A DNA stretch of 52,509 nt from positions 1 to 52,509 of the forward strand of contig JAGVLX010000019.1 in NCBI GenBank assembly GCA_020054065.1, written 5' to 3'. Below, one piece after another: positions 38,186 through 47,081 of this stretch. The DNA is from Parachlamydiales bacterium. Its GTDB lineage: Bacteria; Chlamydiota; Chlamydiia; Chlamydiales; JAEYWL01. Below the pieces are notes generated by a model. The model made no database searches, was not told where the DNA came from, and saw only the letters and a list, made by a program, of their open reading frames with translations. The number at the start of each line of letters is the position of its first letter. The first letter of the stretch is position 1. Position numbers and translations under genes: made by a program.

Positions 38186-39949
38186 ATGCAATCCAAAATA
38201 AATTTACTCTCTTTTGTTTGGCAATTTATTCGCCGTCAGCCGGTGAGCTTTTTGATTATTTTTCTCTTTTCTTTGGGCTGGACTCTGGATTCTCTTACCT
38301 GGTCCTACCTAATGCGGATTGTTATCGATACGCTCACTCAATACGATACAAACCGCACAGCGATTTGGGGGGCGTTGAAATGGGTGATCATCGCCGGTGT
38401 CTCGTTGTGGATATTTGTGGAGCTGCTCTTCCGCACGCGTGACTACATTCGCTCCAAAGCGATCCCAAAATTGGAAGCCGAGATGCGCATGGCGATGTTT
38501 AACCATATCCAGCACCATTCTCCGAAATACTTCAATGAACATTTTGCCGGCAGCTTGGCGAATAAAATCAGCGATATGGTCACCCAGGTCACATCGATGA
38601 TCATGACGTTGAACATTTTTATCCCTGCGATCGCTTCAAGCATTCTTGTCTTAGTCTTGTTTTCACAAGTCAATCCGCTCTTTGCCTTGATTTTGGGCAG
38701 CTGGATGGTACTCCACTTTGGCGTATGCGCATTTTTTACCAAAAAATGTGTGGAAACATCAAATATTCATGGGGAGGCTCGGAGCACGTTAGCCGGTAAA
38801 ATCGTCGATAGCTTGACCAATAACTTCGCCGTCAACCTCTTTTACCGCTTTGGTTACGAGTATGAGCGGGTCGGAGTCAATCAAAAAATAGAACAAACAA
38901 GAAACTCACAAGCGATGTTTGTCGTGTTTCAAATGTTGTTAGCGATGTCGGTCTTGTTTATCATTATGATTGTTTCGATTAATGGATTTCTCCTGCTCAC
39001 GTGGACGCAAAACAAAATCACGACCGGCGAGGTCGTCCAGGTTTTCTACACCACCTTTAATGTCGTGATGATCTTGTGGATCTCAGGCGACCTTCTGCCC
39101 CAGTTTTTTAGATCGTATGGGGTTGCAACGCAGGCCTTAACTGTGATGAACGATCCGCAAGATGTGGTGGACGTCCCGCAGGCCGCAGAGCTAATCGTCC
39201 GCAAAGGGGAGATCGTGTTTGACCGTGTTTCATTCAAATACTCCGATGCGCCGCTATTTGAGAATAAAAATGTCGTGATTCGTGGCGGAGAAAAAGTTGG
39301 GCTGGTCGGTTATTCGGGTGCGGGAAAATCGACATTTGTGAAGTTGATCTTGCGCTTTTATCCTCTTGAATCCGGCAGAATCTTGATTGATGATCAAGAT
39401 ATCGCGCATGTGACGTTACGTTCATTGCATGAGCAGGTCGCGCTTATTCCTCAAGATCCGCTTTTATTCCACCGGTCACTAGAAGATAACATTCACTACG
39501 GCAATCTAGAGGCGACAAAGGAAGAAGTTATTCAAGCCGCACAAATGGCCCAGTGCGATGAATTTATTCGGAAAACCCCAAAAGGTTATGAATCGAAAGT
39601 CGGGGAGCGGGGTACTAAGCTGTCTGGAGGAGAGCGCCAAAGGATAGCGATTGCCCGCGCGATTCTTGCCGATGCGCCGATTTTAATCTTAGATGAGGCC
39701 ACCTCATCGCTCGATTCGGTGACTGAGCGCTATATTCAAGACAGTTTAGAAAGCTTGATGCAAGATCGCACCACTATCGTCATCGCCCACCGGTTATCCA
39801 CACTGGCAAAAATGGACCGCATCCTAGTCTTTGACGAAGGCGCGATTGTTGAGGAAGGAACACATACCGAACTCTTAGAAAAGAATGGACAATACGCCAA
39901 GATGTGGAAGATGCAAGTGGGCGGCTTCCTACCCATTACACCCAACTAA
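38186..39949 (+). CDS. ABC exporter, fused permease/ATP-binding protein
   Basis: N-terminal TM domain; GYSGAGKS, LSGGERQR, ILDEATS and IAHRLST motifs. Confidence 0.95.
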   Translation: MQSKINLLSFVWQFIRRQPVSFLIIFLFSLGWTLDSLTWSYLMRIVIDTLTQYDTNRTAIWGALKWVIIAGVSLWIFVELLFRTRDYIRSKAIPKLEAEMRMAMFNHIQHHSPKYFNEHFAGSLANKISDMVTQVTSMIMTLNIFIPAIASSILVLVLFSQVNPLFALILGSWMVLHFGVCAFFTKKCVETSNIHGEARSTLAGKIVDSLTNNFAVNLFYRFGYEYERVGVNQKIEQTRNSQAMFVVFQMLLAMSVLFIIMIVSINGFLLLTWTQNKITTGEVVQVFYTTFNVVMILWISGDLLPQFFRSYGVATQALTVMNDPQDVVDVPQAAELIVRKGEIVFDRVSFKYSDAPLFENKNVVIRGGEKVGLVGYSGAGKSTFVKLILRFYPLESGRILIDDQDIAHVTLRSLHEQVALIPQDPLLFHRSLEDNIHYGNLEATKEEVIQAAQMAQCDEFIRKTPKGYESKVGERGTKLSGGERQRIAIARAILADAPILILDEATSSLDSVTERYIQDSLESLMQDRTTIVIAHRLSTLAKMDRILVFDEGAIVEEGTHTELLEKNGQYAKMWKMQVGGFLPITPN

Positions 39950-40100
39950 CCACCACAAAATGTTTAGAGACAATTGCATCATGCTGCGAGGTCTGAATTG
40001 TTTTTGATCTCGCTGCGCTCGATCAAGAAACTGTACGTTCTGATTGTCCTGTAAAGGACACTCATGCTAAGGTAAGGTTGAGGATGCAAGGAGGTGGTTT

Positions 40101-40295
40101 ATGCCTAAAAAAAGATCAGATGATCCCAAACCGCTCAATTTTGATCATGATGAAGAGGACGGAGTCAGCGACCGTTTAAAAAAACCGTTCATGACTCCTG
40201 AAGAAGAGCGTGGCGATCTTGAAGAGGATCAATTTTACGAAGAAGATGTGGAAAGCCCTGAAGAACGCAAAATCCGCAAAGAAGAGGAAGAATAA
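40101..40295 (+). CDS. small acidic hypothetical protein
   Basis: Strong AAGGAGGT SD; 64 aa, E/D/K/R-rich; followed by a hairpin at about 40304-40338. Confidence 0.7.
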   Translation: MPKKRSDDPKPLNFDHDEEDGVSDRLKKPFMTPEEERGDLEEDQFYEEDVESPEERKIRKEEEE

Positions 40296-40472
40296 CTTAA
40301 GGCAAACTGGGCACACCGAACCCAGTATGCCCTAGTTTGTCTTGTTCCTAATTTTAGATTTTCCTCTTTCGATCAATATGAAAAATTTAAGATTAGAAGC
40401 AAAAATTTTGGCTAGCTGTTCCCATGCATTCAAATTCCGCAGGTTAGTTTTGGGATGTCTATAATGTAAAGC

Positions 40473-40502
40473 TTGAATTTATTTTAAAATTGCATTTATA
40501 AT
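40473..40502 (+). promoter_or_regulatory. putative sigma70/66 promoter of the arg leader and argG
   Basis: TTGAAT-18nt-TATAAT. Confidence 0.6.
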
Positions 40503-40532
40503 AGATTGCAGCTGTCAAGGAGGCAGTCCTAT

Positions 40533-40616
40533 ATGAACCTATCAAAACCAAAACAGTTTTTTAAGGTAAACTCATACAGTCTATCGTTCCGTCAAGTTTC
40601 CCGCCGTCGCCGTTAA
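40533..40616 (+). CDS. putative arginine-sensing leader peptide MNLSKPKQFFKVNSYSLSFRQVSRRRR (27 aa)
   Basis: AAGGAGG SD at 40517-40523. It ends CGC CGT CGC CGT TAA, 148 nt upstream of argG. Confidence 0.78.
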   Translation: MNLSKPKQFFKVNSYSLSFRQVSRRRR

Positions 40617-40764
40617 GGCACTTCCATTTTTTCATTTTTACATTTTTTTGAAAGCAGCAACTAAAAGCGTTCTTTGTCGCTTTTTGCTTTCCCATTATCA
40701 GATTTGATCTTGCACATCGCTGCAGGGTTAATTCTAAAACAATTATTTTAAAGGAAATTTTTTT

Positions 40765-42006
40765 ATGGAAATTCAAACCATTTTAGAGAAAATTCATCAA
40801 ACACCCATCACCAAAGGGCAAAAAGTAGCCGTTGCCTTTTCTGGAGGACTTGATTCCTCACTAGCTATCGCATTGTTAAGGCATGTGTATCACGCCAGAG
40901 AGATTGTCCCTATTACCATCGATGTGGGGCAAGGGGATGCAGAGATGCAAGAGATGCATCAAAAATCACAAGCATTAAACATTAAGCCGGTCATTATTGA
41001 TGCGAAAGCGGAGTTTTCCCAAAAGTGGCTTTCAAAAGCAATTAGGGCGAACTCGGACTACAATGGTTATCCTGTCTCTACTTCCATGACCAGACAGCTG
41101 GTAGCGAAGCTAGTGGCGCTTGAAGCCAAGAAACAAGGGTGCGACGCCATTCTTGAAGGGTCAACTGGCAAGGGAAACGATCAATACCGGATGCATAATG
41201 TGTTTAAACTGTTTGCTCCTGAGCTGGATATTTTAGTCCCGGTACGGGATTTTAATCTCACCCGGCCAGAAGAACAGGCTCTATGCGCGTACTGGGGAGT
41301 GCCGGTTAATGAGCAAATCATTGGAGGTGACGACAAAACTTTGTGGTGCCGGTCAATCGCTTCAGGCGCCATCGACCTCAACCAAGCGATTCCTGATGAT
41401 GTGTGGATGTGGAGGATTCCGCCTTATCAAGCTGGAGAACAAGGCATAGAAATCAAATTGCAGTTTGAGTCAGGCATTCCTACAGCCTTGAATGATCAAG
41501 CGATGCCATTGGATCAATTGATTGCCGAATTAAATGTTTTGGCTGGCAGCCAAGGGATAGGGCTGATTGATATGTTTGAGGATGGCATCATGGATCTAAA
41601 GAGTCGCGAGATATATGAAGCTCCCGCCGCGCATGTCATTCTCAAGCTGCATCGGGATTTGGAGCAGCAGTGTTTAACGAAGGAAGAGATTCAATTTAAG
41701 AAAGTGATCGACGCCCAATGGGCCTATCAAGTGTATCACGGATTGTGGTTTTCGCCTTTAAAAGAAGCGTTGGATGCATTTATTTTACAGACCCAAACAA
41801 TGGTCTCAGGAACGATTAAAGCCAAGCTTTATAAGGGGAATATAGAAATCGTGTATCGGGAATCTGATCATTCGCTATTTGCGCCAGAAATCCGGTCCAT
41901 TAAGAGTGTATCTTTTGACCAACGCTGGTGTGCGCACGCTGCCAAAATTCGGGGGCTTCCTTGTGAAATTTTGGCTAAACGAAATCAGATAACATTGACT
42001 ACATAG
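40765..42006 (+). CDS. argG: argininosuccinate synthase
   Basis: AFSGGLDSS, GSTGKGNDQYR and KSREIYEAPAA motifs. Confidence 0.93.
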   Translation: MEIQTILEKIHQTPITKGQKVAVAFSGGLDSSLAIALLRHVYHAREIVPITIDVGQGDAEMQEMHQKSQALNIKPVIIDAKAEFSQKWLSKAIRANSDYNGYPVSTSMTRQLVAKLVALEAKKQGCDAILEGSTGKGNDQYRMHNVFKLFAPELDILVPVRDFNLTRPEEQALCAYWGVPVNEQIIGGDDKTLWCRSIASGAIDLNQAIPDDVWMWRIPPYQAGEQGIEIKLQFESGIPTALNDQAMPLDQLIAELNVLAGSQGIGLIDMFEDGIMDLKSREIYEAPAAHVILKLHRDLEQQCLTKEEIQFKKVIDAQWAYQVYHGLWFSPLKEALDAFILQTQTMVSGTIKAKLYKGNIEIVYRESDHSLFAPEIRSIKSVSFDQRWCAHAAKIRGLPCEILAKRNQITLTT

Positions 42007-42010
42007 CAGA

Positions 42011-42072
42011 CACAAAGAAAATTTGGAGTGCAGTAACAAGTTACCGCACTCCAAATTTTTCTTTTCTTTGTG
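42011..42072 (+). terminator. REP-derived hairpin probably acting as the argG terminator
   Basis: AAAATTTGGAGTGCAGTAAC-AA-GTTACCGCACTCCAAATTTT with a T-rich tail; same family as 11638-11667. Confidence 0.75.
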
Positions 42073-42085
42073 CCTTCATTCTTTA

Positions 42086-42115
42086 TTGACATAATTGTCT
42101 AATTTAGACTAAAAT
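42086..42115 (+). promoter_or_regulatory. promoter with palindromic operator in the spacer
   Basis: TTGACA-18nt-TAAAAT; GTCTAA-T-TTAGAC at 42097-42109. Confidence 0.7.
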
Positions 42116-42134
42116 GTATTAAAAGGAAGTTTTT

Positions 42135-42740
42135 ATGACGGATCTTGAACTCTATTTCCCGGTGGCCCAGGCGATCCACATTCTTCTTCATCCGCATGGA
42201 GAAGTGGTGGTTCACAATCTTAAAACCGGAAAAATTGCCGCGATCTATAACAATTTTTCGAAACGGAAAGTGGGAGATGAATCGCTGATTGAAGAGCTTG
42301 CCGATTACACAAAACTCCCCGACGTGTTTCCTCCTTACACGAAGACCAACTGGGATGGCCGTCAGCTGAAATCGGCGACCGCAACGTTGCGCGATAAAAA
42401 AGGCACTCCCATTGGCCTCCTATGCATCAATCTGGATGTTTCTAGATGGGAGGATTTTCGCCTGCTTTTAACGCAGTGGCTTAGTAATCAAAATCAGCCG
42501 GAAGTGCTATTCAAGGATGATTGGCGCGAAAAAATCAATCTCTATGTGTCCGATTATTTGAAGAAAGAGGGAACTGTGCTCAAAGCGCTATCCAAAGAGA
42601 AGAAACAAGAGCTGATCAAAGCCCTGCATCGCGAAGGTGCTTTTAGAGCCAAAAACGCAGCCACCTATGTCGCTGATGTACTCGATCTTTCGCGGGCAAC
42701 CATTTACAATTACTTAAGGACTGCCGATGAAATTGCCTGA
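42135..42740 (+). CDS. YheO/DauR-like PAS + HTH transcriptional regulator
   Basis: EVVVHNL, FSKRKVGD, DGRQLKSAT, GLLCINLD and LSRATIYNYL motifs. Confidence 0.93.
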   Translation: MTDLELYFPVAQAIHILLHPHGEVVVHNLKTGKIAAIYNNFSKRKVGDESLIEELADYTKLPDVFPPYTKTNWDGRQLKSATATLRDKKGTPIGLLCINLDVSRWEDFRLLLTQWLSNQNQPEVLFKDDWREKINLYVSDYLKKEGTVLKALSKEKKQELIKALHREGAFRAKNAATYVADVLDLSRATIYNYLRTADEIA

Positions 42741-43863
42741 ATTTAAACTAGAAGAGTTTTGGAAAACCTACGAGTTTACCGCACCCTATCTATTGTGCTG
42801 TTCCGATGCCGAAACCTGGAGCCTTCAAGAAATTGTGTCGATGGCCGATCCTGAAGCGAAAAAATTATGGGAATCCCTTCGCTTAGGCTATACGGAGTCG
42901 CCTGGACATCCGCTGCTGCGCCAAGAAATTTCTCAACTTTACTCCACACTGAATGCAGATCAGATCCTGACCTGCGCAGGCGCTGAAGAGGGGATCTATT
43001 GCTCCATGCGTGTATTGATCGAACCAAACGATCATGTAATCGTCATCGAGCCGTGCTACCAATCGCTTATCACATTGGCGCAGTCAATGGGTGCTGAGGT
43101 GACCACAATCCGGCTTAAGCCGGAAACACAATGGAAATTGAACCTGGAAGAAGTCAGGCAAGCGTTTCGTCCTAACACCAAGCTGCTGATCCTTAATTAT
43201 CCCCAAAATCCCACGGGAACGTTGTTAGACCCCATGGTTCAAGAAGGGTTAATCGAACTCGCTCGAATCAGCGAAGCCTACATTTTTTGTGACGAAGTTT
43301 ACCGTTATATGGAGGTGGAGGAATCAATGCGTCTTCCGTCGCTAGCCGACGCATATGAAAAAGGGATTGCATTGAATGTCCTCACCAAATCGTTTGGATT
43401 GGCAGGTTTGCGAATCGGATGGCTAGCAACGCGCGATCCGATCCTAAAAAAGATAAGCTCCTACAAACTCTACACGTCGATTTGCAATAGCGCTCCCAGC
43501 GAAATTTTAGCGATCATCGCTCTGCGCGCGAAAGCGCACCTTCTCGGACGGAACCGACAACTGATGCTAGCGAATTTGCAACTTCTCGATCACTTTGTAG
43601 AACGCAATTCAAAATCTGTCTCTTGGATTCGTCCGCAAAGCGGGACGATCGCTGTCTTGAAATTGCTGCTGCCGATATCGGTCGAAACTTTTGCTCAAGA
43701 TCTTGTCAAGACACGAGGCGTACTCGTGATGCCTGGTTCTGTGTTTGATTTACCGGGAAATTTCTTTCGCGTTGGTTTTGGCAAACAGAATATGCCTGAT
43801 ATCTTAGGCCGGTTTGAAAAATATCTACAGTTGGAGGCCTCCCACCATGCAACAGCTCATTGA
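42727..43863 (+). CDS. PLP-dependent aminotransferase class I/II
   Basis: NYPQNPTG, DEVY and TKSFGLAGLRIGW motifs. Confidence 0.93.
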   Translation: MKLPEFKLEEFWKTYEFTAPYLLCCSDAETWSLQEIVSMADPEAKKLWESLRLGYTESPGHPLLRQEISQLYSTLNADQILTCAGAEEGIYCSMRVLIEPNDHVIVIEPCYQSLITLAQSMGAEVTTIRLKPETQWKLNLEEVRQAFRPNTKLLILNYPQNPTGTLLDPMVQEGLIELARISEAYIFCDEVYRYMEVEESMRLPSLADAYEKGIALNVLTKSFGLAGLRIGWLATRDPILKKISSYKLYTSICNSAPSEILAIIALRAKAHLLGRNRQLMLANLQLLDHFVERNSKSVSWIRPQSGTIAVLKLLLPISVETFAQDLVKTRGVLVMPGSVFDLPGNFFRVGFGKQNMPDILGRFEKYLQLEASHHATAH

Positions 43864-44815
43864 TCAAGCAGCAAGTGTCCTAAAAGGACAGATCCGAACC
43901 ACTCCAATCGAATTTTCTGCTAAGCTATCGACTCTTGTTGGACAGCCCGTTTATTTAAAACTGGAATGTTTGCAGCTTACCGGTTCCTTTAAAGTACGAG
44001 GCGGTTTGTTTTACTTATCGACGTTGAGTCAGGCTGAACGGGCGAATGGAGTGGCCGCTTGTTCGGCCGGTAATCACGGTTTAGGAGTCGCGTTTGCAGC
44101 CAGGCAGCTACAGGTTCCCTGTACCGTTTTTGTTCCCAAGCAAGTCGATCAAGCTAAATACGATCAACTAGTCGAGTTAGGGGCCTCAGTCATCAAATCT
44201 GACTTTATCGGCTATGATGATACTCTAGCCTGGGCGCTGAATCAAGCGAAGAGCCTTAACGTTCCTCTTGTTCCGGCTTATGATGATTCGAGGATCATGG
44301 CAGCCAATGGAGGAACCCTGGCTGCGGAGGTACTGGAACAAGTCCCAGACGCGGTTCATTTCGTTTTACCAATGGGAGGGGGCGGACTGGCTGGGGGATT
44401 TTTAGGGTGCCTTAAGGAACGCAGGCCGCAGGCTAAAACAACCATTTGCCAACTCGCTGATTGTCCAGCGCTTCAATTGTCCTGTGAGCAAGGGAAGGCG
44501 ATGACCTATATGCCGCCAGTCGAGACCTTAGCGGGCGGCTTAGAAGGAGGGTTGGGAGCTCAATGCTTTGATGTATTGAGGACACGCATTGATGAAATCG
44601 CACATGTAACAGAAGAAGAGTTAAAGGAAGCGCTGGCTTGGTTGTTGAAGTACCACCAATATCTGATTGAACCTTCGGCCGCCGTTGCGTTAGCAAGTTG
44701 CTTAAATGGCAGTATTAAACCGAAAGGGACGACCGTGTTGATTTTGACCGGACGCAATGTCGATGAAGCAAAAGTAAGGAATATCTTAGCGCGCCATGAA
44801 AATCATCACCCGTAA
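43847..44815 (+). CDS. threonine/serine dehydratase family PLP enzyme (no regulatory domain)
   Basis: KLECLQLTGSFKVRG, SAGNHG, PMGGGGL and EPSAA motifs. Confidence 0.92.
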   Translation: MQQLIDQAASVLKGQIRTTPIEFSAKLSTLVGQPVYLKLECLQLTGSFKVRGGLFYLSTLSQAERANGVAACSAGNHGLGVAFAARQLQVPCTVFVPKQVDQAKYDQLVELGASVIKSDFIGYDDTLAWALNQAKSLNVPLVPAYDDSRIMAANGGTLAAEVLEQVPDAVHFVLPMGGGGLAGGFLGCLKERRPQAKTTICQLADCPALQLSCEQGKAMTYMPPVETLAGGLEGGLGAQCFDVLRTRIDEIAHVTEEELKEALAWLLKYHQYLIEPSAAVALASCLNGSIKPKGTTVLILTGRNVDEAKVRNILARHENHHP

Positions 44816-45740
44816 AGAAATTGAATCGGTCTTATGCATCCCTTCTGTTTTGGAAGCGATTGAACGCGGTTTTGTGGCTTATAGCTTAGGAGAAGCCGTC
44901 ATTCCTCCCGTTGCCGCACTGCATTTTGATGCTCCCCGCGGCGATTGCCACATCAAGTATGGTTATGCAAAAAGCGGCCGCCACTACGTCATCAAGATTG
45001 CTTCAGGGTTTTACGATAACGATCAGCTTGGTCTGCCTTCTAATCATGGACTTATGCTCTTATTTGACAAACAAACGGGTGCGCCTGTGTGCGGATTGCT
45101 TGACGAAGGATTTTTGACCGATATTCGTACGGCTGCAGCAGGATCGATTGCCGCCAAGTATCTTGCACCAAAAAATGTTGAATGTGTGGGAATCATTGGA
45201 ACAGGTGCCCAAGCGCTGTATCAATTAAAATGGTTAACCTTTGCGACAACTTGTCGAAAGGCAATCATTTGGGGGCGCGATCGAGAAAAAGCGAAAAAAC
45301 TGACCCTCCATCCGGAATTGTGGGAGTGGAAATTAGAAGTTGTTCCTAGCATCGATCAACTGGCTGAACAGTGCCATTTAATTGTTACGGCGACCTCCTC
45401 TTCAAGTCCGCTGTTATTTGCTCATCAAATCCAATCGGGCACCCATATTACGGCGGTTGGTGCGGACGATCAAGGGAAGCAAGAGCTTGATCCAAAGCTT
45501 TTCGAAAAAGCGGACTGCGTGGTTGTGGATAGCCGCAGCCAATGCGCAGCCTTTGGCGATACAGCCTATGCGCTTCAGCAAGGACTTATTAGGTCTGAGA
45601 AATTGATCGAATTAGGTGAACTTTTGGCAAAGCCCTCTTTAGGGCGTATATCCGATAATCAAATTACCCTCTGCGATTTGACAGGAGTCGCCATTCAAGA
45701 TTTACAAATTGCCGAAAGCATTTATAATAAAATCTTCTAA
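44796..45740 (+). CDS. ornithine cyclodeaminase/mu-crystallin family protein
   Basis: LTDIRTAAAG, GTGAQA, HITAVGAD and DLTGVAIQD motifs. Confidence 0.93.
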   Translation: MKIITRKEIESVLCIPSVLEAIERGFVAYSLGEAVIPPVAALHFDAPRGDCHIKYGYAKSGRHYVIKIASGFYDNDQLGLPSNHGLMLLFDKQTGAPVCGLLDEGFLTDIRTAAAGSIAAKYLAPKNVECVGIIGTGAQALYQLKWLTFATTCRKAIIWGRDREKAKKLTLHPELWEWKLEVVPSIDQLAEQCHLIVTATSSSSPLLFAHQIQSGTHITAVGADDQGKQELDPKLFEKADCVVVDSRSQCAAFGDTAYALQQGLIRSEKLIELGELLAKPSLGRISDNQITLCDLTGVAIQDLQIAESIYNKIF

Positions 45741-45833: not shown

Positions 45834-47081
45834 ATGGACGCAGCCGCTGTTTTATTAGATTCTACCCGCCAGACTTCGTTACTGCCGCTTTGTTTTGAAA
45901 AGAAAAAAATCCTGCTCAGCGTGGGGAGATATTTAACCCTCCCAGATCTATTTCATGCATCGCAAGCTTGTCGTAAATGGCGAAGGTTATTCGCAGATCC
46001 TGATCTTCGTCTCGTCGTAAATGGATGTGTATTTATAATTGCTTATTCAGATAGTCGCGAGATGACCCAGCCATTCCTATTTTGCGGGAATACCAGAGTT
46101 GAAAGCTATTACAGTACACTTGAGTTTTACCATCATAAAACAGTAACCCGTTGGCGTCACGAAGAACTGACACCGATCGATCGAATCTTAGCTGTATGGC
46201 AAAATCGCTTATACTATTCCTGCGTCGGACCGAATGTCTCAAAAATGTTAATCTTTGATCCGAAGACCGGTCAGTTGTTGAGTACCTATCTAGAATACAC
46301 TCCCACTTTTTGGGATCTTATTGCGCGTAACATGAATCATGTATTTGAATCAGGAGAATACCTGATCGCCAAATGTGAGAAGTGGGTAAAAATTTGGTAT
46401 CGCAATCATGCAAACCCTATCGTACAACTTCCATTTCCAGAATATTATCGCTTGCACGATGCAGTCATTTCAGGCGATAGGCTTACCCTTAGCGCGATGC
46501 AAAATGATAAACTCCTAAAAATATACGAATGCAATTGGAAGACAGATCACTCTCTTACGCTTGTTTATGAATATGGCACCCATAACCGTAGACGATCAAA
46601 AACCTGCTTTGTCAAAACAACAGGGCAATTTATTTGCATTCATAATGGTAAGCAATGGGAATTCGTCTTCAAGCGTAGATATTTTAAGCTGCCTCCCGAA
46701 TTTAAAGATGTGCGGGGAGTTGCAGCCGTGCCTAATCGATTGTTCATTGCTAATTTCGATGGTCAAATGGCCGAAATAAACACGGAAACAGGAGAGGCTA
46801 ACTTTTTTAGTCTTCATATAGATAAAATTGTCCATTTAGAAGTGGTGATGGATCACTTCTTGCTAGCTATCACACAAGAGGGGTCGGTGGTTTTTACCTC
46901 TCTTAAAAAAGATTTTTTGCATGTTTTTCAGTTAAACTTAAACTTTCAACGTTTATTGCGAGAGGACTCCAATGCTTTGAATCCGTATGTACGGGTTGAC
47001 GGAGCAAAAGTGTCGTTCTGGCAAAAAAATGGCGGGGCAGATTGTTGCATTTTAATGGATCTGAGGCGCCTATTTAATTAG
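45834..47081 (+). CDS. F-box-like protein with beta-rich (propeller-like) C-terminus
   Basis: YLTLPDLFHASQACRKWRRL resembles the C-terminal half of an F-box. Confidence 0.7.
   Translation: MDAAAVLLDSTRQTSLLPLCFEKKKILLSVGRYLTLPDLFHASQACRKWRRLFADPDLRLVVNGCVFIIAYSDSREMTQPFLFCGNTRVESYYSTLEFYHHKTVTRWRHEELTPIDRILAVWQNRLYYSCVGPNVSKMLIFDPKTGQLLSTYLEYTPTFWDLIARNMNHVFESGEYLIAKCEKWVKIWYRNHANPIVQLPFPEYYRLHDAVISGDRLTLSAMQNDKLLKIYECNWKTDHSLTLVYEYGTHNRRRSKTCFVKTTGQFICIHNGKQWEFVFKRRYFKLPPEFKDVRGVAAVPNRLFIANFDGQMAEINTETGEANFFSLHIDKIVHLEVVMDHFLLAITQEGSVVFTSLKKDFLHVFQLNLNFQRLLREDSNALNPYVRVDGAKVSFWQKNGGADCCILMDLRRLFN

Follow-up and report, generated by a model that had tools for sequence, protein, structure and literature searches.

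Candidate arginine-sensing leader peptides without a canonical terminator upstream of arginine genes in chlamydiae

Leader-peptide attenuation is textbook biology for the Trp, His, Phe, Leu, Thr and Ile/Val pathways, while arginine is taught as the domain of ArgR, a repressor that acts with ARG boxes and is the usual means of arginine control. An open reading frame (ORF) of 27 codons that ends in four arginine codons, located upstream of an argininosuccinate synthase gene in a Parachlamydiales bacterium, therefore raises a question: could a leader peptide govern arginine genes in these organisms, and by what output? All coordinates below refer to the window, the whole stretch of 52,509 nt that was analysed, and G000 is the label of its own genome. 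A preliminary description had read the locus as a candidate arginine attenuator, and the promoter, Shine-Dalgarno sequence, leader ORF with its Arg4 end, G-free tract and hairpin that it listed are all found where it placed them (Table 1).

Table 1. Features of the leader locus and its downstream gene in the window.
Feature	Coordinates	Strand	Basis
Hairpin GGGCACACCGAACCCAGTATGCCC then TAGTTTGTCTTG, likely terminator of the upstream gene	40309..40332	+	scan lists minus strand; plus-strand tail read directly
Sigma-70-like promoter, TTGAAT (40473-78), 18 nt, TATAAT (40497-502)	40473..40502	+	10/12 matches
Shine-Dalgarno sequence AAGGAGG, 9 nt 5' of ATG 40533	40517..40523	+	read directly
Leader ORF, 27 codons plus TAA (40614-16), MNLSKPKQFFKVNSYSLSFRQVSRRRR	40533..40616	+	sequence, family, R1 model
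Upstream Arg codon CGT, codon 20; RR pair at the same place in most relatives	40590..40592	+	
Four consecutive Arg codons CGC CGT CGC CGT, adjoining the stop	40602..40613	+	read directly
G-free tract, 31 nt, 84% pyrimidine, U-rich; candidate Rho-loading or pause region	40619..40649	+	composition; family alignment
Hairpin GAAAGCA/AAAAGCG...CGCTTTT/TGCTTTC, 7+7 bp, 6-nt bulge, -13.1 kcal/mol, without U tail	40650..40691	+	fold
Second predicted hairpin, 14 pairs, several G-U	40700..40735	+	fold
argG2 ribosome-binding region AAAGGAAA plus ATG	40750..40767	+	fold
argG2, argininosuccinate synthase, second paralog, 413 aa	40765..42006	+	profile models
Hairpin, 19 bp, then TCTTTTCTTTG; canonical terminator	42018..42059	+	terminator scan

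Since the gene upstream is probably closed by a terminator, the leader requires a promoter of its own. Taken by itself, the promoter in Table 1 is within chance, because the scan of 39900-41000 returned two promoter-like sites, no more than shuffled sequence does (2.5 +/- 1.4). In the predicted fold, a small 5' hairpin holds the Shine-Dalgarno sequence in its loop. A model of the family (R1) matches the leader at 40580-40657 with 55 bits (E 1.1e-14 in one search and 4.1e-16 in another); its Arg codons are common CGN codons, and all four of the terminal run are codons read by tRNA-Arg(ACG). Leader and argG2 form a monocistronic unit that ends at the canonical terminator. The downstream gene had been described simply as argG, an identity borne out by two profile models over 40765-42006 (TIGR00032, 333.3 bits against a cut-off of 268.2; NF001770, 339.7 bits against 334), with the refinement that the genome has two argG paralogs, of which this one is the second and has been relocated in the lineage of the window. 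Among the genomes searched, this arrangement was found in G000 only. A scan of JGI metagenomes with argG2 gave a best match of 73% identity and no close relative sharing the arrangement, and a search of sequencing runs listed no RNA run and one DNA run with 0.53 of the words.

Could such an ORF have arisen by chance? Runs of at least four Arg codons are frequent, with 434 across the six frames. Together with a promoter scan that does not rise above shuffles and an argG2 arrangement unique to G000, this number would suit a leader without any regulatory role, which would then be either an ORF that arose by chance within a promoter region or what is left of a decayed argG1, the gene that precedes argG2 in relatives. 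Yet RRRR is present in only two of the 941 mini-ORFs of G000 that have an ATG start, 8-60 codons and an SD-like site, one being the window leader, and a paralog and 11 orthologous leaders stand before arginine genes with substitutions that show codon periodicity. It is thus extremely unlikely that the leader has no role. The remnant idea was dropped, a blastx search of 39950-40764 against four argG1 proteins being empty (best E 4.6). The second of the two RRRR mini-ORFs is at C27. In 4.78 Mb of sequence, both strands included, there are 137 G-free runs with a length of at least 31 nt and a pyrimidine share of at least 75%. No Pfam or NCBIfam family matched the leader peptide, and a scan of 40250-40850 with Rfam 15 produced 14 matches with E up to 10, none near its gathering score; the best was OrzO-P (24.6 bits; gathering score 60), and no T-box or leader family appeared. 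As no family model recognises them, mini-ORFs of this kind are left unannotated.

Evidence for a function also comes from relatives of the leader. The preliminary description had proposed to look for conserved Arg-run mini-ORFs in related genomes, and this search found the leader to be conserved, with 13 members in 12 chlamydial genomes, i.e. G000 and 11 others of the same order. Two of the members belong to G000 itself. Its second leader precedes a gene for an ArtJ-like arginine-binding protein and heads a set of ArtJ, ABC transporter, argG1 and argH genes; the paralogy within the genome is evident from window 40599-40652 and C114:40739-40791, which are 81% identical over 54 nt (E 9.6e-7). 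Across the family the next gene is ArtJ-like in 11 cases, argG1 in one and argG2 in one. The common layout consists of the end of an Arg-run mini-ORF with its stop, a G-poor U-rich tract and then the arginine gene, with a spacer of 91-295 nt between leader and gene in 12 leaders (142 nt in L211). By reading, the other 11 leaders with printed upstream sequence carry TTGAxx, about 17 nt and a TAxxxT-like hexamer, and the leaders of relatives have an AGG-type site 7-9 nt 5' of the likely ATG.

Conservation within the peptide is concentrated at its end. The last ten codons include 3-6 Arg codons in all 13 leaders (five in the window), 12 of them have Arg as their final codon, and most end in ..SFRRRR-stop. 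The N-termini are unrelated and the lengths, as called from the first ATG, vary from 22 to 52 codons. Minor-allele counts over the last four codons are 3, 1 and 9 for the first, second and third codon positions, and L200 uses AGA where other leaders use CGT or CGC. This pattern of mainly third-position variation and AGA/CGN exchange in the Arg block suggests that selection acts at the codon level. On a further reading, the peptide arrests the ribosome: ..SFRRRR-stop, while in the tunnel at the stop codon, would respond to free arginine or ornithine, in the manner of the fungal arginine attenuator peptide, TnaC and SpeFL and not as a sensor of tRNA charging. Alternatively, the product could be a small cationic peptide that has its own function. 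Leaders that sense free ligands are known, SpeFL responding to ornithine, and the abutment of the Arg run on the stop in 13 of 13, F at -5 in nine of the 13 leaders and S at -6 in seven would be compatible with this. Still, the conserved residues are few, F is missing from both G000 copies (the window copy has S at -5), the N-termini share nothing, and no Pfam or NCBIfam family matches the peptide. A stall at high arginine would also need some way to repress a gene at a distance of 91-295 nt, and none is visible; a run of cognate codons would be the simpler sensor for a biosynthesis or uptake operon. We consider an arrest or autonomous peptide very unlikely.

How specific is the association with arginine? 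A search of 401 genomes with the pattern TTYCGNCGNCGNCGNTAR matched 27 places in 25 genomes. The leader context is present at eight of these places; the remaining 19 lack it and apparently are other frames of genes. The pattern was not enriched over its reversed control, which matched many genomes too, and the case for a family rests on context and not on pattern counts. Weak R1 matches (E above 4e-5), 14 of them in G070, cover the U-rich half only and are not leaders. One genome (G043) has the same operon and no leader within 5 kb upstream; three others (G095, G112, G113) have argG above cut-off and no strong match to the R1 model. A third candidate in G000, at C98:646-702 (..FRCRPSRRRR), was rejected as another frame of a pseudouridine-synthase-like gene, so named from its translation, without a U tract. 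Upstream of 154 argG2 homologues, chlamydial and non-chlamydial, with at least 120 nt available, there were 29 RRR ORFs; by reading, those other than the window leader belong to GC-rich loci and have no terminal Arg run or SD. The leaders are tied exclusively to arginine genes. We regard it as very probable that the cassette is an arginine-sensing leader peptide of some kind. Because the same design precedes arginine uptake or synthesis genes in a dozen related chlamydiae, the Arg-run leader very likely turns these genes on when arginine is scarce.

Such a sensor would serve the functions that elsewhere belong to ArgR and its ARG boxes, namely control of arginine transport and of argG/argH. 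Unlike ArgR systems, the leaders occur without an ArgR domain (PF01316) in the search of G000 or in the seven leader-bearing genomes of a 150-genome sample, of which 26 have ArgR above cut-off. The absence from these seven is not significant: at the rate of the other genomes (26 of 143), about 1.3 of the seven would have ArgR. G112 has argG and ArgR and lacks the leader.

What, then, would the ribosome control? The RNA around the leader end is G-poor and rich in U. The ORF tails (-48..-13) have C 0.29, U 0.51 and G 0.09, with 2.55 YC dinucleotides per 10 nt compared with 1.06 in the ORF heads; the 40 nt after the stop (+1..+40) have U 0.53, C 0.21 and G 0.07. In both segments C/G is about 3, which is rut-like by composition only. 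The longest G-free run after the stop reaches at least 27 nt in nine of 12 leaders. In all, a pyrimidine-rich stretch of about 90 nt surrounds the Arg block, predicted folds leave the tract unpaired, and the U-rich tract is the feature conserved through the family, with U runs after the stop in all aligned rows. G000 encodes rho (PF07497, 118.4 bits, C53). The length and variability of the spacer between leader and gene also accord with a Rho-based output.

The preliminary description had remarked that the hairpin downstream of the tract has no poly-U tail; indeed there is none at 40650-91, and no plus-strand intrinsic terminator was found in 39900-41000, in a genome that uses canonical terminators elsewhere. 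The hairpin itself exists and is not conserved in sequence, although most members have some hairpin after the tract, and a U run often lies no more than about 10 nt from it. These AU-rich hairpins have z below 0 in 12 of 13 leaders and z of -2 or lower in four. A trp-style antiterminator was sought and dropped: the 5' arm of the downstream hairpin gains 0 to -6.7 kcal/mol with upstream RNA, with no consistent pairing partner across the leaders. Taken together, neither a canonical terminator/antiterminator pair nor a stop-codon hairpin or anti-Shine-Dalgarno pairing kept across the family withstood testing.

A stalled ribosome that masks a Rho-loading site, an output already proposed in the preliminary description, is suggested as the best fit to this composition, and a Rho-based reading is favoured because about 90 nt are pyrimidine-rich and unstructured and Rho is present. 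In the proposed mechanism, the 27-codon ORF would serve as a regulatory leader peptide through which the supply of charged tRNA-Arg is read. With ample arginine, the ribosome would pass the terminal RRRR codons and be released at the stop, baring about 90 nt of unstructured, G-poor, pyrimidine-rich RNA made up of the last dozen codons and the 31-nt tract. Rho could then load on the bare tract and, within the hairpin-rich spacer, end transcription short of argG2. Under arginine shortage, the ribosome would stall on the Arg codons in the middle of the tract with followers queued behind, and this convoy would block Rho loading and allow transcription to continue into argG2. That the leader senses charged tRNA-Arg and acts by such relief of Rho-dependent termination has, in our estimate, a little less than an even chance, and this estimate is the one for Rho dependence of the output. 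Several observations run counter to it. The tract is U-rich and not C-rich (C 0.21-0.29), and a ribosome stalled on RRRR would itself leave about +12..+40 of the tract bare. Furthermore, four of 12 leaders pass a loose terminator rule, with a mini GC stem and a U run at the Arg/stop block that resemble a weak intrinsic terminator. With the hairpins that most members have after the tract, this leaves intrinsic termination some probability.

This resemblance is the starting point for another output of the same sensor, in which a weak intrinsic terminator or hairpin-stabilised pause is made from the Arg codons themselves. The last Arg codons would form a small GC stem, sometimes with the stop in its loop, directly followed by the U-rich tract; a ribosome stalled on RRRR would keep the 5' arm in its mRNA channel, preventing the stem and giving read-through. 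For instance, the ArtJ copy of G000 has GCGGC-UAA-GCCGC then UUUUAUUUUUU, and L192 has GGCGGC-GUUAA-GCCGUU then CUUUUUUUU. Local folds place stems of -4.4 to -8.8 kcal/mol at the Arg/stop block in all 12 leaders, GGC..GCC of most relatives is replaced by GCC..GGC in the window copy (one pair altered on both sides), the Arg block is kept even at synonymous sites, as CGC CGT CGG CGT TAA in seven of the 13 leaders, and the aligned rows all have U runs beyond the stop. As a conserved helix, however, the stop-codon hairpin was no better than controls and was dropped: it is paired in 56.7% of cells, which is no better than with slid partners or in shuffles, 417 of 500 of which reach this value. RNAalifold retains a nearly invariant 4-bp CGCC/GGCG stem that lacks covariation and is broken in both G000 copies. 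The eight leaders that do not pass even the loose rule weigh against this output, as does the length of the stems, 3-6 bp being short for intrinsic terminators. Discrimination by arginine would also be hard to explain, since a ribosome at the stop would hide the stem equally. We judge this output unlikely.

A third output would be translational. The pyrimidine-rich codons 5' of the Arg run could act as an anti-Shine-Dalgarno sequence against the argG2 site 150 nt downstream, which a ribosome stalled on RRRR would free by covering these codons. The minimum-free-energy fold of the window's leader, modestly better than shuffles (z -2.32; 2 of 200 shuffles equally good), does pair leader nucleotides 40587-40601 with the argG2 ribosome-binding region, specifically with GGAAAUUU and AUGGAA. 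The duplex has -10.4 kcal/mol, matched by 2% of shuffled tails, and L194 and L169 are likewise better than about 98% of shuffles. There is also a published Arg-codon leader acting on translation, rbfL of S. aureus (PMC13009471). The pairing is nevertheless peculiar to the window copy and not kept across the family: nine of 12 tails pair no better than their own shuffles, and the summed cognate energy of -88.8 compares with -82.1 +/- 6.1 for permuted pairs, 13.8% of permutations being as low. Anti-Shine-Dalgarno pairing as a family feature was dropped because cognate pairs are not better than permuted ones. Direct occlusion in the style of rbfL is impossible, as the structural start is 91-295 nt from the leader, and the conserved U-rich tract is left without explanation. 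Translational control is quite unlikely.

Relief of Rho-dependent termination also invites a broader evolutionary reading. Environmental chlamydiae without ArgR may use a terminator-less cassette for arginine import and synthesis in which the Arg run is centred in the Rho-loading tract, so that the stalled ribosome would be the sole antiterminator, with no RNA switch. The cassette would be modular: in G000 its 3' half, composed of the final codons plus the U-rich tract, would have been copied to a new promoter and start before the relocated argG paralog. We hold this to be possible but rather doubtful; if true, it would show how such sensors spread to new genes.

How do these leaders compare with systems already described? 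The classical attenuators that control transcription of amino-acid operons through a leader peptide are treated in PMC2965389. Like trpL, hisL, pheL, leuL, thrL and ilvL, the chlamydial leaders have a promoter of their own, a Shine-Dalgarno sequence and a short ORF in which codons for the amino acid made or imported downstream stand in a row; the ORF ends near a U-rich region and the peptide is conserved only at the regulatory codons. In contrast to these attenuators, no mutually exclusive antiterminator was found, nor a GC-rich terminator followed by a U tail; the codon run adjoins the stop, the amino acid is arginine and the phylum is Chlamydiota. A different precedent is tnaC of E. coli, an example of Rho-dependent leader-peptide control. 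According to PMC6386406, orf34 (speFL) of Salmonella speF has consecutive Arg codons, and pausing on them responds to arginine and acts via mRNA structure and RNase G. As proposed here for the chlamydial leaders, translation or stalling in the short upstream ORF of orf34 and tnaC decides Rho termination, and the setting is similar as well, with a G-poor pyrimidine tract flanking the ORF end and rho present. Those two leaders serve polyamine synthesis or tryptophan catabolism and also respond to a free ligand, whereas the chlamydial ones serve arginine uptake and synthesis; no sequence similarity to orf34 or tnaC was seen, and nothing came near an Rfam threshold.

Two further parallels, one in the amino acid that is sensed and one in phylum, differ in direction. 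According to PMC13009471, rbfL has eight codons with rare AGA/AGG and overlaps the rbf ribosome-binding site, so that occlusion represses on starvation. The chlamydial leaders share the small upstream ORF with Arg codons and, as proposed here, ribosome pausing at arginine limitation, but they use common CGN codons, 91-295 nt separate them from the structural start, and starvation is expected to induce the genes. In C. trachomatis, the WWW motif of YtgCR combines stalling at Trp codons with Rho-mediated polarity, and chlamydial Rho is functional and bicyclomycin-sensitive, as reported in PMC7755916. The phylum is the same, and so is the proposed coupling of termination to stalling at consecutive cognate codons; in YtgCR the codons are inside a long protein gene and stalling causes termination, whereas the leader is a separate mini-ORF in which stalling is expected to prevent it.

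Our literature search found no description of a leader with Arg codons ahead of genes for the synthesis or uptake of arginine, and none of the papers it turned up names arginine as a leader-controlled biosynthetic pathway. To our knowledge, few cis-regulatory RNA elements are known in chlamydiae. Because chlamydiae depend on host amino acids, a tRNA-Arg read-out over ArtJ and argG/argH would be relevant to host-nutrient sensing, with a bearing that spans amoeba symbionts and pathogenic relatives. The signature ..FRRRR-stop followed by a U-rich tract can be used to annotate such mini-ORFs and, as no terminator/antiterminator pair was found, the family offers a compact natural test case for ribosome-occluded Rho loading or weak termination. 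Against the background of trpL, tnaC, rbfL and YtgCR, the arginine-codon leaders are a variation on known leader-peptide attenuation in which no canonical terminator was found.

The arginine-codon leader upstream of argG2, the second of two argininosuccinate synthase genes, is a real and conserved element, and the interpretation placed on it in the preliminary description holds. Direct reading of 40200-41000 located every component that had been claimed, each at its place: a promoter-like site, a Shine-Dalgarno sequence, a 27-codon ORF with an arginine-rich end, a G-free tract, and a hairpin lacking a poly-U tail. The final four codons, CGC CGT CGC CGT (40602-13), directly abut TAA, and an additional CGT is codon 20. 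The upstream gene is followed by a hairpin of its own, so a separate promoter-like site is required for the leader, and one is present; a promoter scan alone did not rise above chance (2 sites vs 2.5 +/- 1.4 in shuffles). Arginine runs of at least four codons are common over the six frames (434 in 2.39 Mb of genome). Among mini-ORFs with an ATG start, 8-60 codons and an SD-like site, RRRR occurs in only 2 of 941, one of them the window leader. G-free runs of at least 31 nt with at least 75% pyrimidine number 137 on both genome strands. A short, very acidic ORF (..EEERGDLEEDQFYEEDVESPEERKIRKEEEE) occupies 40101-40295; an MsbA-like ABC transporter gene (38147-39949) precedes it, and the promoter of the leader follows.

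Features of the argG2 leader and its surroundings
Feature	Position	Strand	Basis or remark
Hairpin of upstream gene (gene end 40295)	40309-32		reading and terminator scan
Promoter-like site, TTGAAT, 18 nt, TATAAT	40473-78, 40497-502	+	direct reading of 40200-41000
Shine-Dalgarno AAGGAGG	40517-23	+	9 nt 5' of ATG 40533
Leader ORF, 27 codons, MNLSKPKQFFKVNSYSLSFRQVSRRRR	ATG 40533 to TAA 40614-16	+	direct reading
G-free stretch, 31 nt, 84% pyrimidine	40619-49	+	composition
Bulged 7+7 bp hairpin; tail CCATTATCAG, not a U run	40650-91	+	fold
Second hairpin	40700-35	+	fold
Perfect 19-bp hairpin, A run on one flank, TCTTTTCTTTG on the other	42018-42059		closes argG2
YheO-like PAS/HTH regulator	42135-42740		cluster 3' of argG2
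Aminotransferase, nearest PRK07324, GntC and VioD (enzymes acting on arginine derivatives)	42727-43863
EutB-like threonine/serine dehydratase	43814-44815		cluster 3' of argG2
Ornithine-cyclodeaminase/EutC-like protein	44796-45740		cluster 3' of argG2

The same genome (G000) carries a second copy. When the spacer was compared with G000 by blastn, the sole significant match joined 40599-40652 to C114:40739-40791 (81% over 54 nt, E 9.6e-7). This copy is a 28-codon ORF, MDAHNKITSVTYKRSTIFSFRRPSRRRG, with GCGGC-UAA-GCCGC at its stop, then UUUUAUUUUUU and ACAUUUUUUUU. Both peptides share S-F-R-x-x-S-R-R-R-x-stop, with the synonymous differences TCG/TCA and CGT/CGC. A lipoprotein with the motif GLQSGYPPFEF, typical of ArtJ (an arginine-binding protein of ABC transporters), begins 91 nt 3' of the second stop. 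Contig C114 terminates within this ArtJ-like gene, and C54, with the order permease, ATPase, argG1, argH (L005), starts within the same kind of protein. Judging from these contig ends, the second leader probably heads an ArtJ/permease/ATPase/argG1/argH operon.

The preliminary description had called for a conserved mini-ORF with an arginine run in related genomes, and this is borne out by 13 leaders in 12 genomes, all before arginine genes; five family codes (f1, f31, f37, f42, f44) cover 11 of the genomes, G041 having none. A search with the ArtJ-like fragment found homologues in all five relatives searched, and a mini-ORF with a terminal arginine run precedes the ArtJ-like gene in all four relatives parsed. 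The fifth, G043, has a different gene order, and no leader was found within 5 kb. Across the order's 401 genomes, the pattern F-R-R-R-R-stop matched 27 times in 25 of them, with no enrichment over a reversed-pattern control; eight matches are mini-ORF ends with a U-rich tract next and, beyond it, an ArtJ-like gene (seven) or argG1 (one), two of the eight being the same sequences as loci already found. R1, a sequence-only model of the leader region, gave strong matches (E at most 1.8e-10) in seven genomes out of 151 sampled, both G000 copies included, and brought in G101 (..SSRRPIRRGR-stop, followed by ArtJ-like) as an additional member. Fourteen weak matches in G070 (L213, L223-L235) cover only the U-rich half of R1 and point to a U-rich element that is repeated there.

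The leaders have unrelated N-terminal parts of differing length. Each of the 13 has three to six arginine codons among its last ten, the last codon is arginine in 12, and phenylalanine stands at -5 in nine. Over the four terminal codons, minor alleles count 3, 1 and 9 by codon position, mostly in third positions, and one leader has AGA where others have CGT or CGC; this pattern would be expected if selection were for an arginine codon at these sites. Two further blocks were observed. A conserved ATCGCAT..A(T/C)AGGTTGCGA(n)ATG lies roughly 30 nt 5' of the leader start codon in L189, L200, L202, L170 and also L169; pairing of ATCGCA with TGCGAT could give a stem whose loop holds the SD-like AGG of the leader. 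A comparable small hairpin occurs in the window, where AAGGAGG occupies the loop; hairpins of this kind may govern how fast the leader is translated. A (T)TAGCTAAC-like block, loosely conserved at roughly +35 to +60 relative to the stop (L170, L194, L202, L185, L195, L200; GCAGCAACTAAAAGC at 40654-40668 in the window), often appears, from reading of the alignment, to be the 5' arm of the hairpin after the tract.

Among 150 scored genomes, argG was above cut-off in nine, six of them with the leader; no strong R1 match was found in the other three (G095, G112, G113). G031 has a family leader (L194) before an ArtJ-like gene and no argG above cut-off; hence the element can control arginine import alone. 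The repressor ArgR (PF01316) was above cut-off in 26 of the 150 and in none of the seven leader-bearing genomes, and G112 has both argG and ArgR. This is suggestive of leader and ArgR being complementary across genomes, at numbers too small for significance.

The window's argG2 (40765-42006) scores above the cut-offs of two curated argG models (TIGR00032, 333.3 vs 268.2 bits; NF001770, 339.7 vs 334) and is 33% identical to argG1 on C54. It is closed by its own hairpin, likely a two-way terminator, beyond which the next gene has a TTGACA-18-TAAAAT site, so the leader serves argG alone. On a G024 fragment and in the five nearest public relatives (chlamydial or chlamydia-like MAGs, 76-79% identical), argG2 immediately follows argG1. 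Of the loci in these five relatives, four read ABC-transporter genes, argG1, argG2, argH, with few bases between the two paralogs, and the fifth (L008) reads ATPase, ArtJ-like, argG1, argG2, argH. In G000, argG1 and argH remain joined and argG2 is alone on a different contig, which argues that argG2 moved out of the operon in this lineage. Neither the genome collection nor JGI metagenomes yielded a close relative sharing this arrangement. The 470-nt spacer was also considered as a decayed argG1 and rejected (best blastx E only 4.6).

The cluster at 42086-45740, with its TTGACA-18-TAAAAT site, adjoins argG2 and may encode a pathway for some compound derived from arginine or ornithine. Among four other ORFs (36319-37758 +, 47078-48814 -, 45834-47081 +, 48849-49772 +), two translations contain what look like protein-kinase motifs (HRDLKPENIL, HHDLTLENVL). 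The other two have apparently F-box-like N-termini, one with leucine-rich repeats; such features are typical of amoeba-symbiont effectors.

The mini-ORF is very probably an arginine-sensing leader peptide. The arginine codons at its end, CGC and CGT, rank first and second in genome-wide arginine codon use (35% and 20%), both being read by tRNA-Arg(ACG); the genome has five tRNA-Arg genes. The sensor would thus respond to the main isoacceptor, with no dependence on codon rarity. How stalling would be converted into output is less certain. No canonical terminator of a trp-style switch was found in the window leader, and a loose scan of 12 leaders returned nothing beyond mini-stems, located at the Arg/stop block of four. 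Small stems of this kind, in which the last arginine codons pair around a looped stop codon, have local folds of -4.4 to -8.8 kcal/mol (GCC..GGC in the window vs GGC..GCC in others). As a conserved helix the stem was rejected, being paired in only 56.7% of alignment cells, no better than with shuffled or slid partners; RNAalifold kept only an invariant 4-bp stem. That the same sensor acts on a weak terminator is less probable than Rho-dependent output. Beyond the U-rich tract, a hairpin is seen in most leaders (z vs shuffles negative in 12 of 13, and at or below -2 in four, the window included), several with a U run within about 10 nt by reading. The 5' arm of this hairpin has no consistent upstream alternative partner (gain only 0 to -6.7 kcal/mol), and ordinary strong terminators occur elsewhere in G000 where needed. 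Control of argG translation seems improbable: the ORF tail is predicted to pair with the argG2 ribosome-binding site at -10.4 kcal/mol in the window, a value reached by 2% of shuffles, and such sequestration was rejected as a family feature, as it beats shuffles in 3 of 12 leaders and cognate pairs do no better than permuted ones.

Rho-dependent output is the reading tentatively favored here, at somewhat less than even confidence. In the 36 nt of the ORFs that precede the Arg block, pyrimidines make up 80% (C 0.29, U 0.51, G 0.09), and YC dinucleotides number 2.55 per 10 nt in these ORF tails vs 1.06 in ORF heads; the 40 nt 3' of the stop are also G-poor (U 0.53, C 0.21, G 0.07), the tract is single-stranded in predicted folds, and rho is encoded in G000. 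A ribosome released at the leader stop would expose a pyrimidine-rich, unstructured Rho-loading site of about 90 nt, and one stalled on the arginine codons mid-site, with followers behind it, would hide most of that site. Rho dependence would account for the Ser/Phe/Leu-rich, pyrimidine-coded ORF tail, the arginine run abutting the stop, the long variable spacer, and the absence of an RNA switch. Against it, the tract is U-rich, not C-rich, and part of it would stay bare.

In the full-text collection searched, which covers a minority of subscription journals, no Arg-codon leader was found before arginine synthesis or transport genes, nor any in chlamydiae. An attenuator survey noted that almost none of the predicted chlamydial attenuators had a function; the words arginine and argG are absent from its main text (PMC2965389). 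A study of C. trachomatis links Trp-codon stalling to Rho-dependent and Rho-independent termination within genes (PMC7755916). The family shares the design of classical leader-peptide attenuators; of the two parts that define these, no canonical terminator and no consistent antiterminator was found. The closest published systems reading arginine codons are Salmonella speF orf34, where translation counteracts Rho and pausing at two Arg codons works via RNA structure and RNase G (PMC6386406), and S. aureus rbfL, which uses translational occlusion (PMC13009471); neither controls arginine supply.
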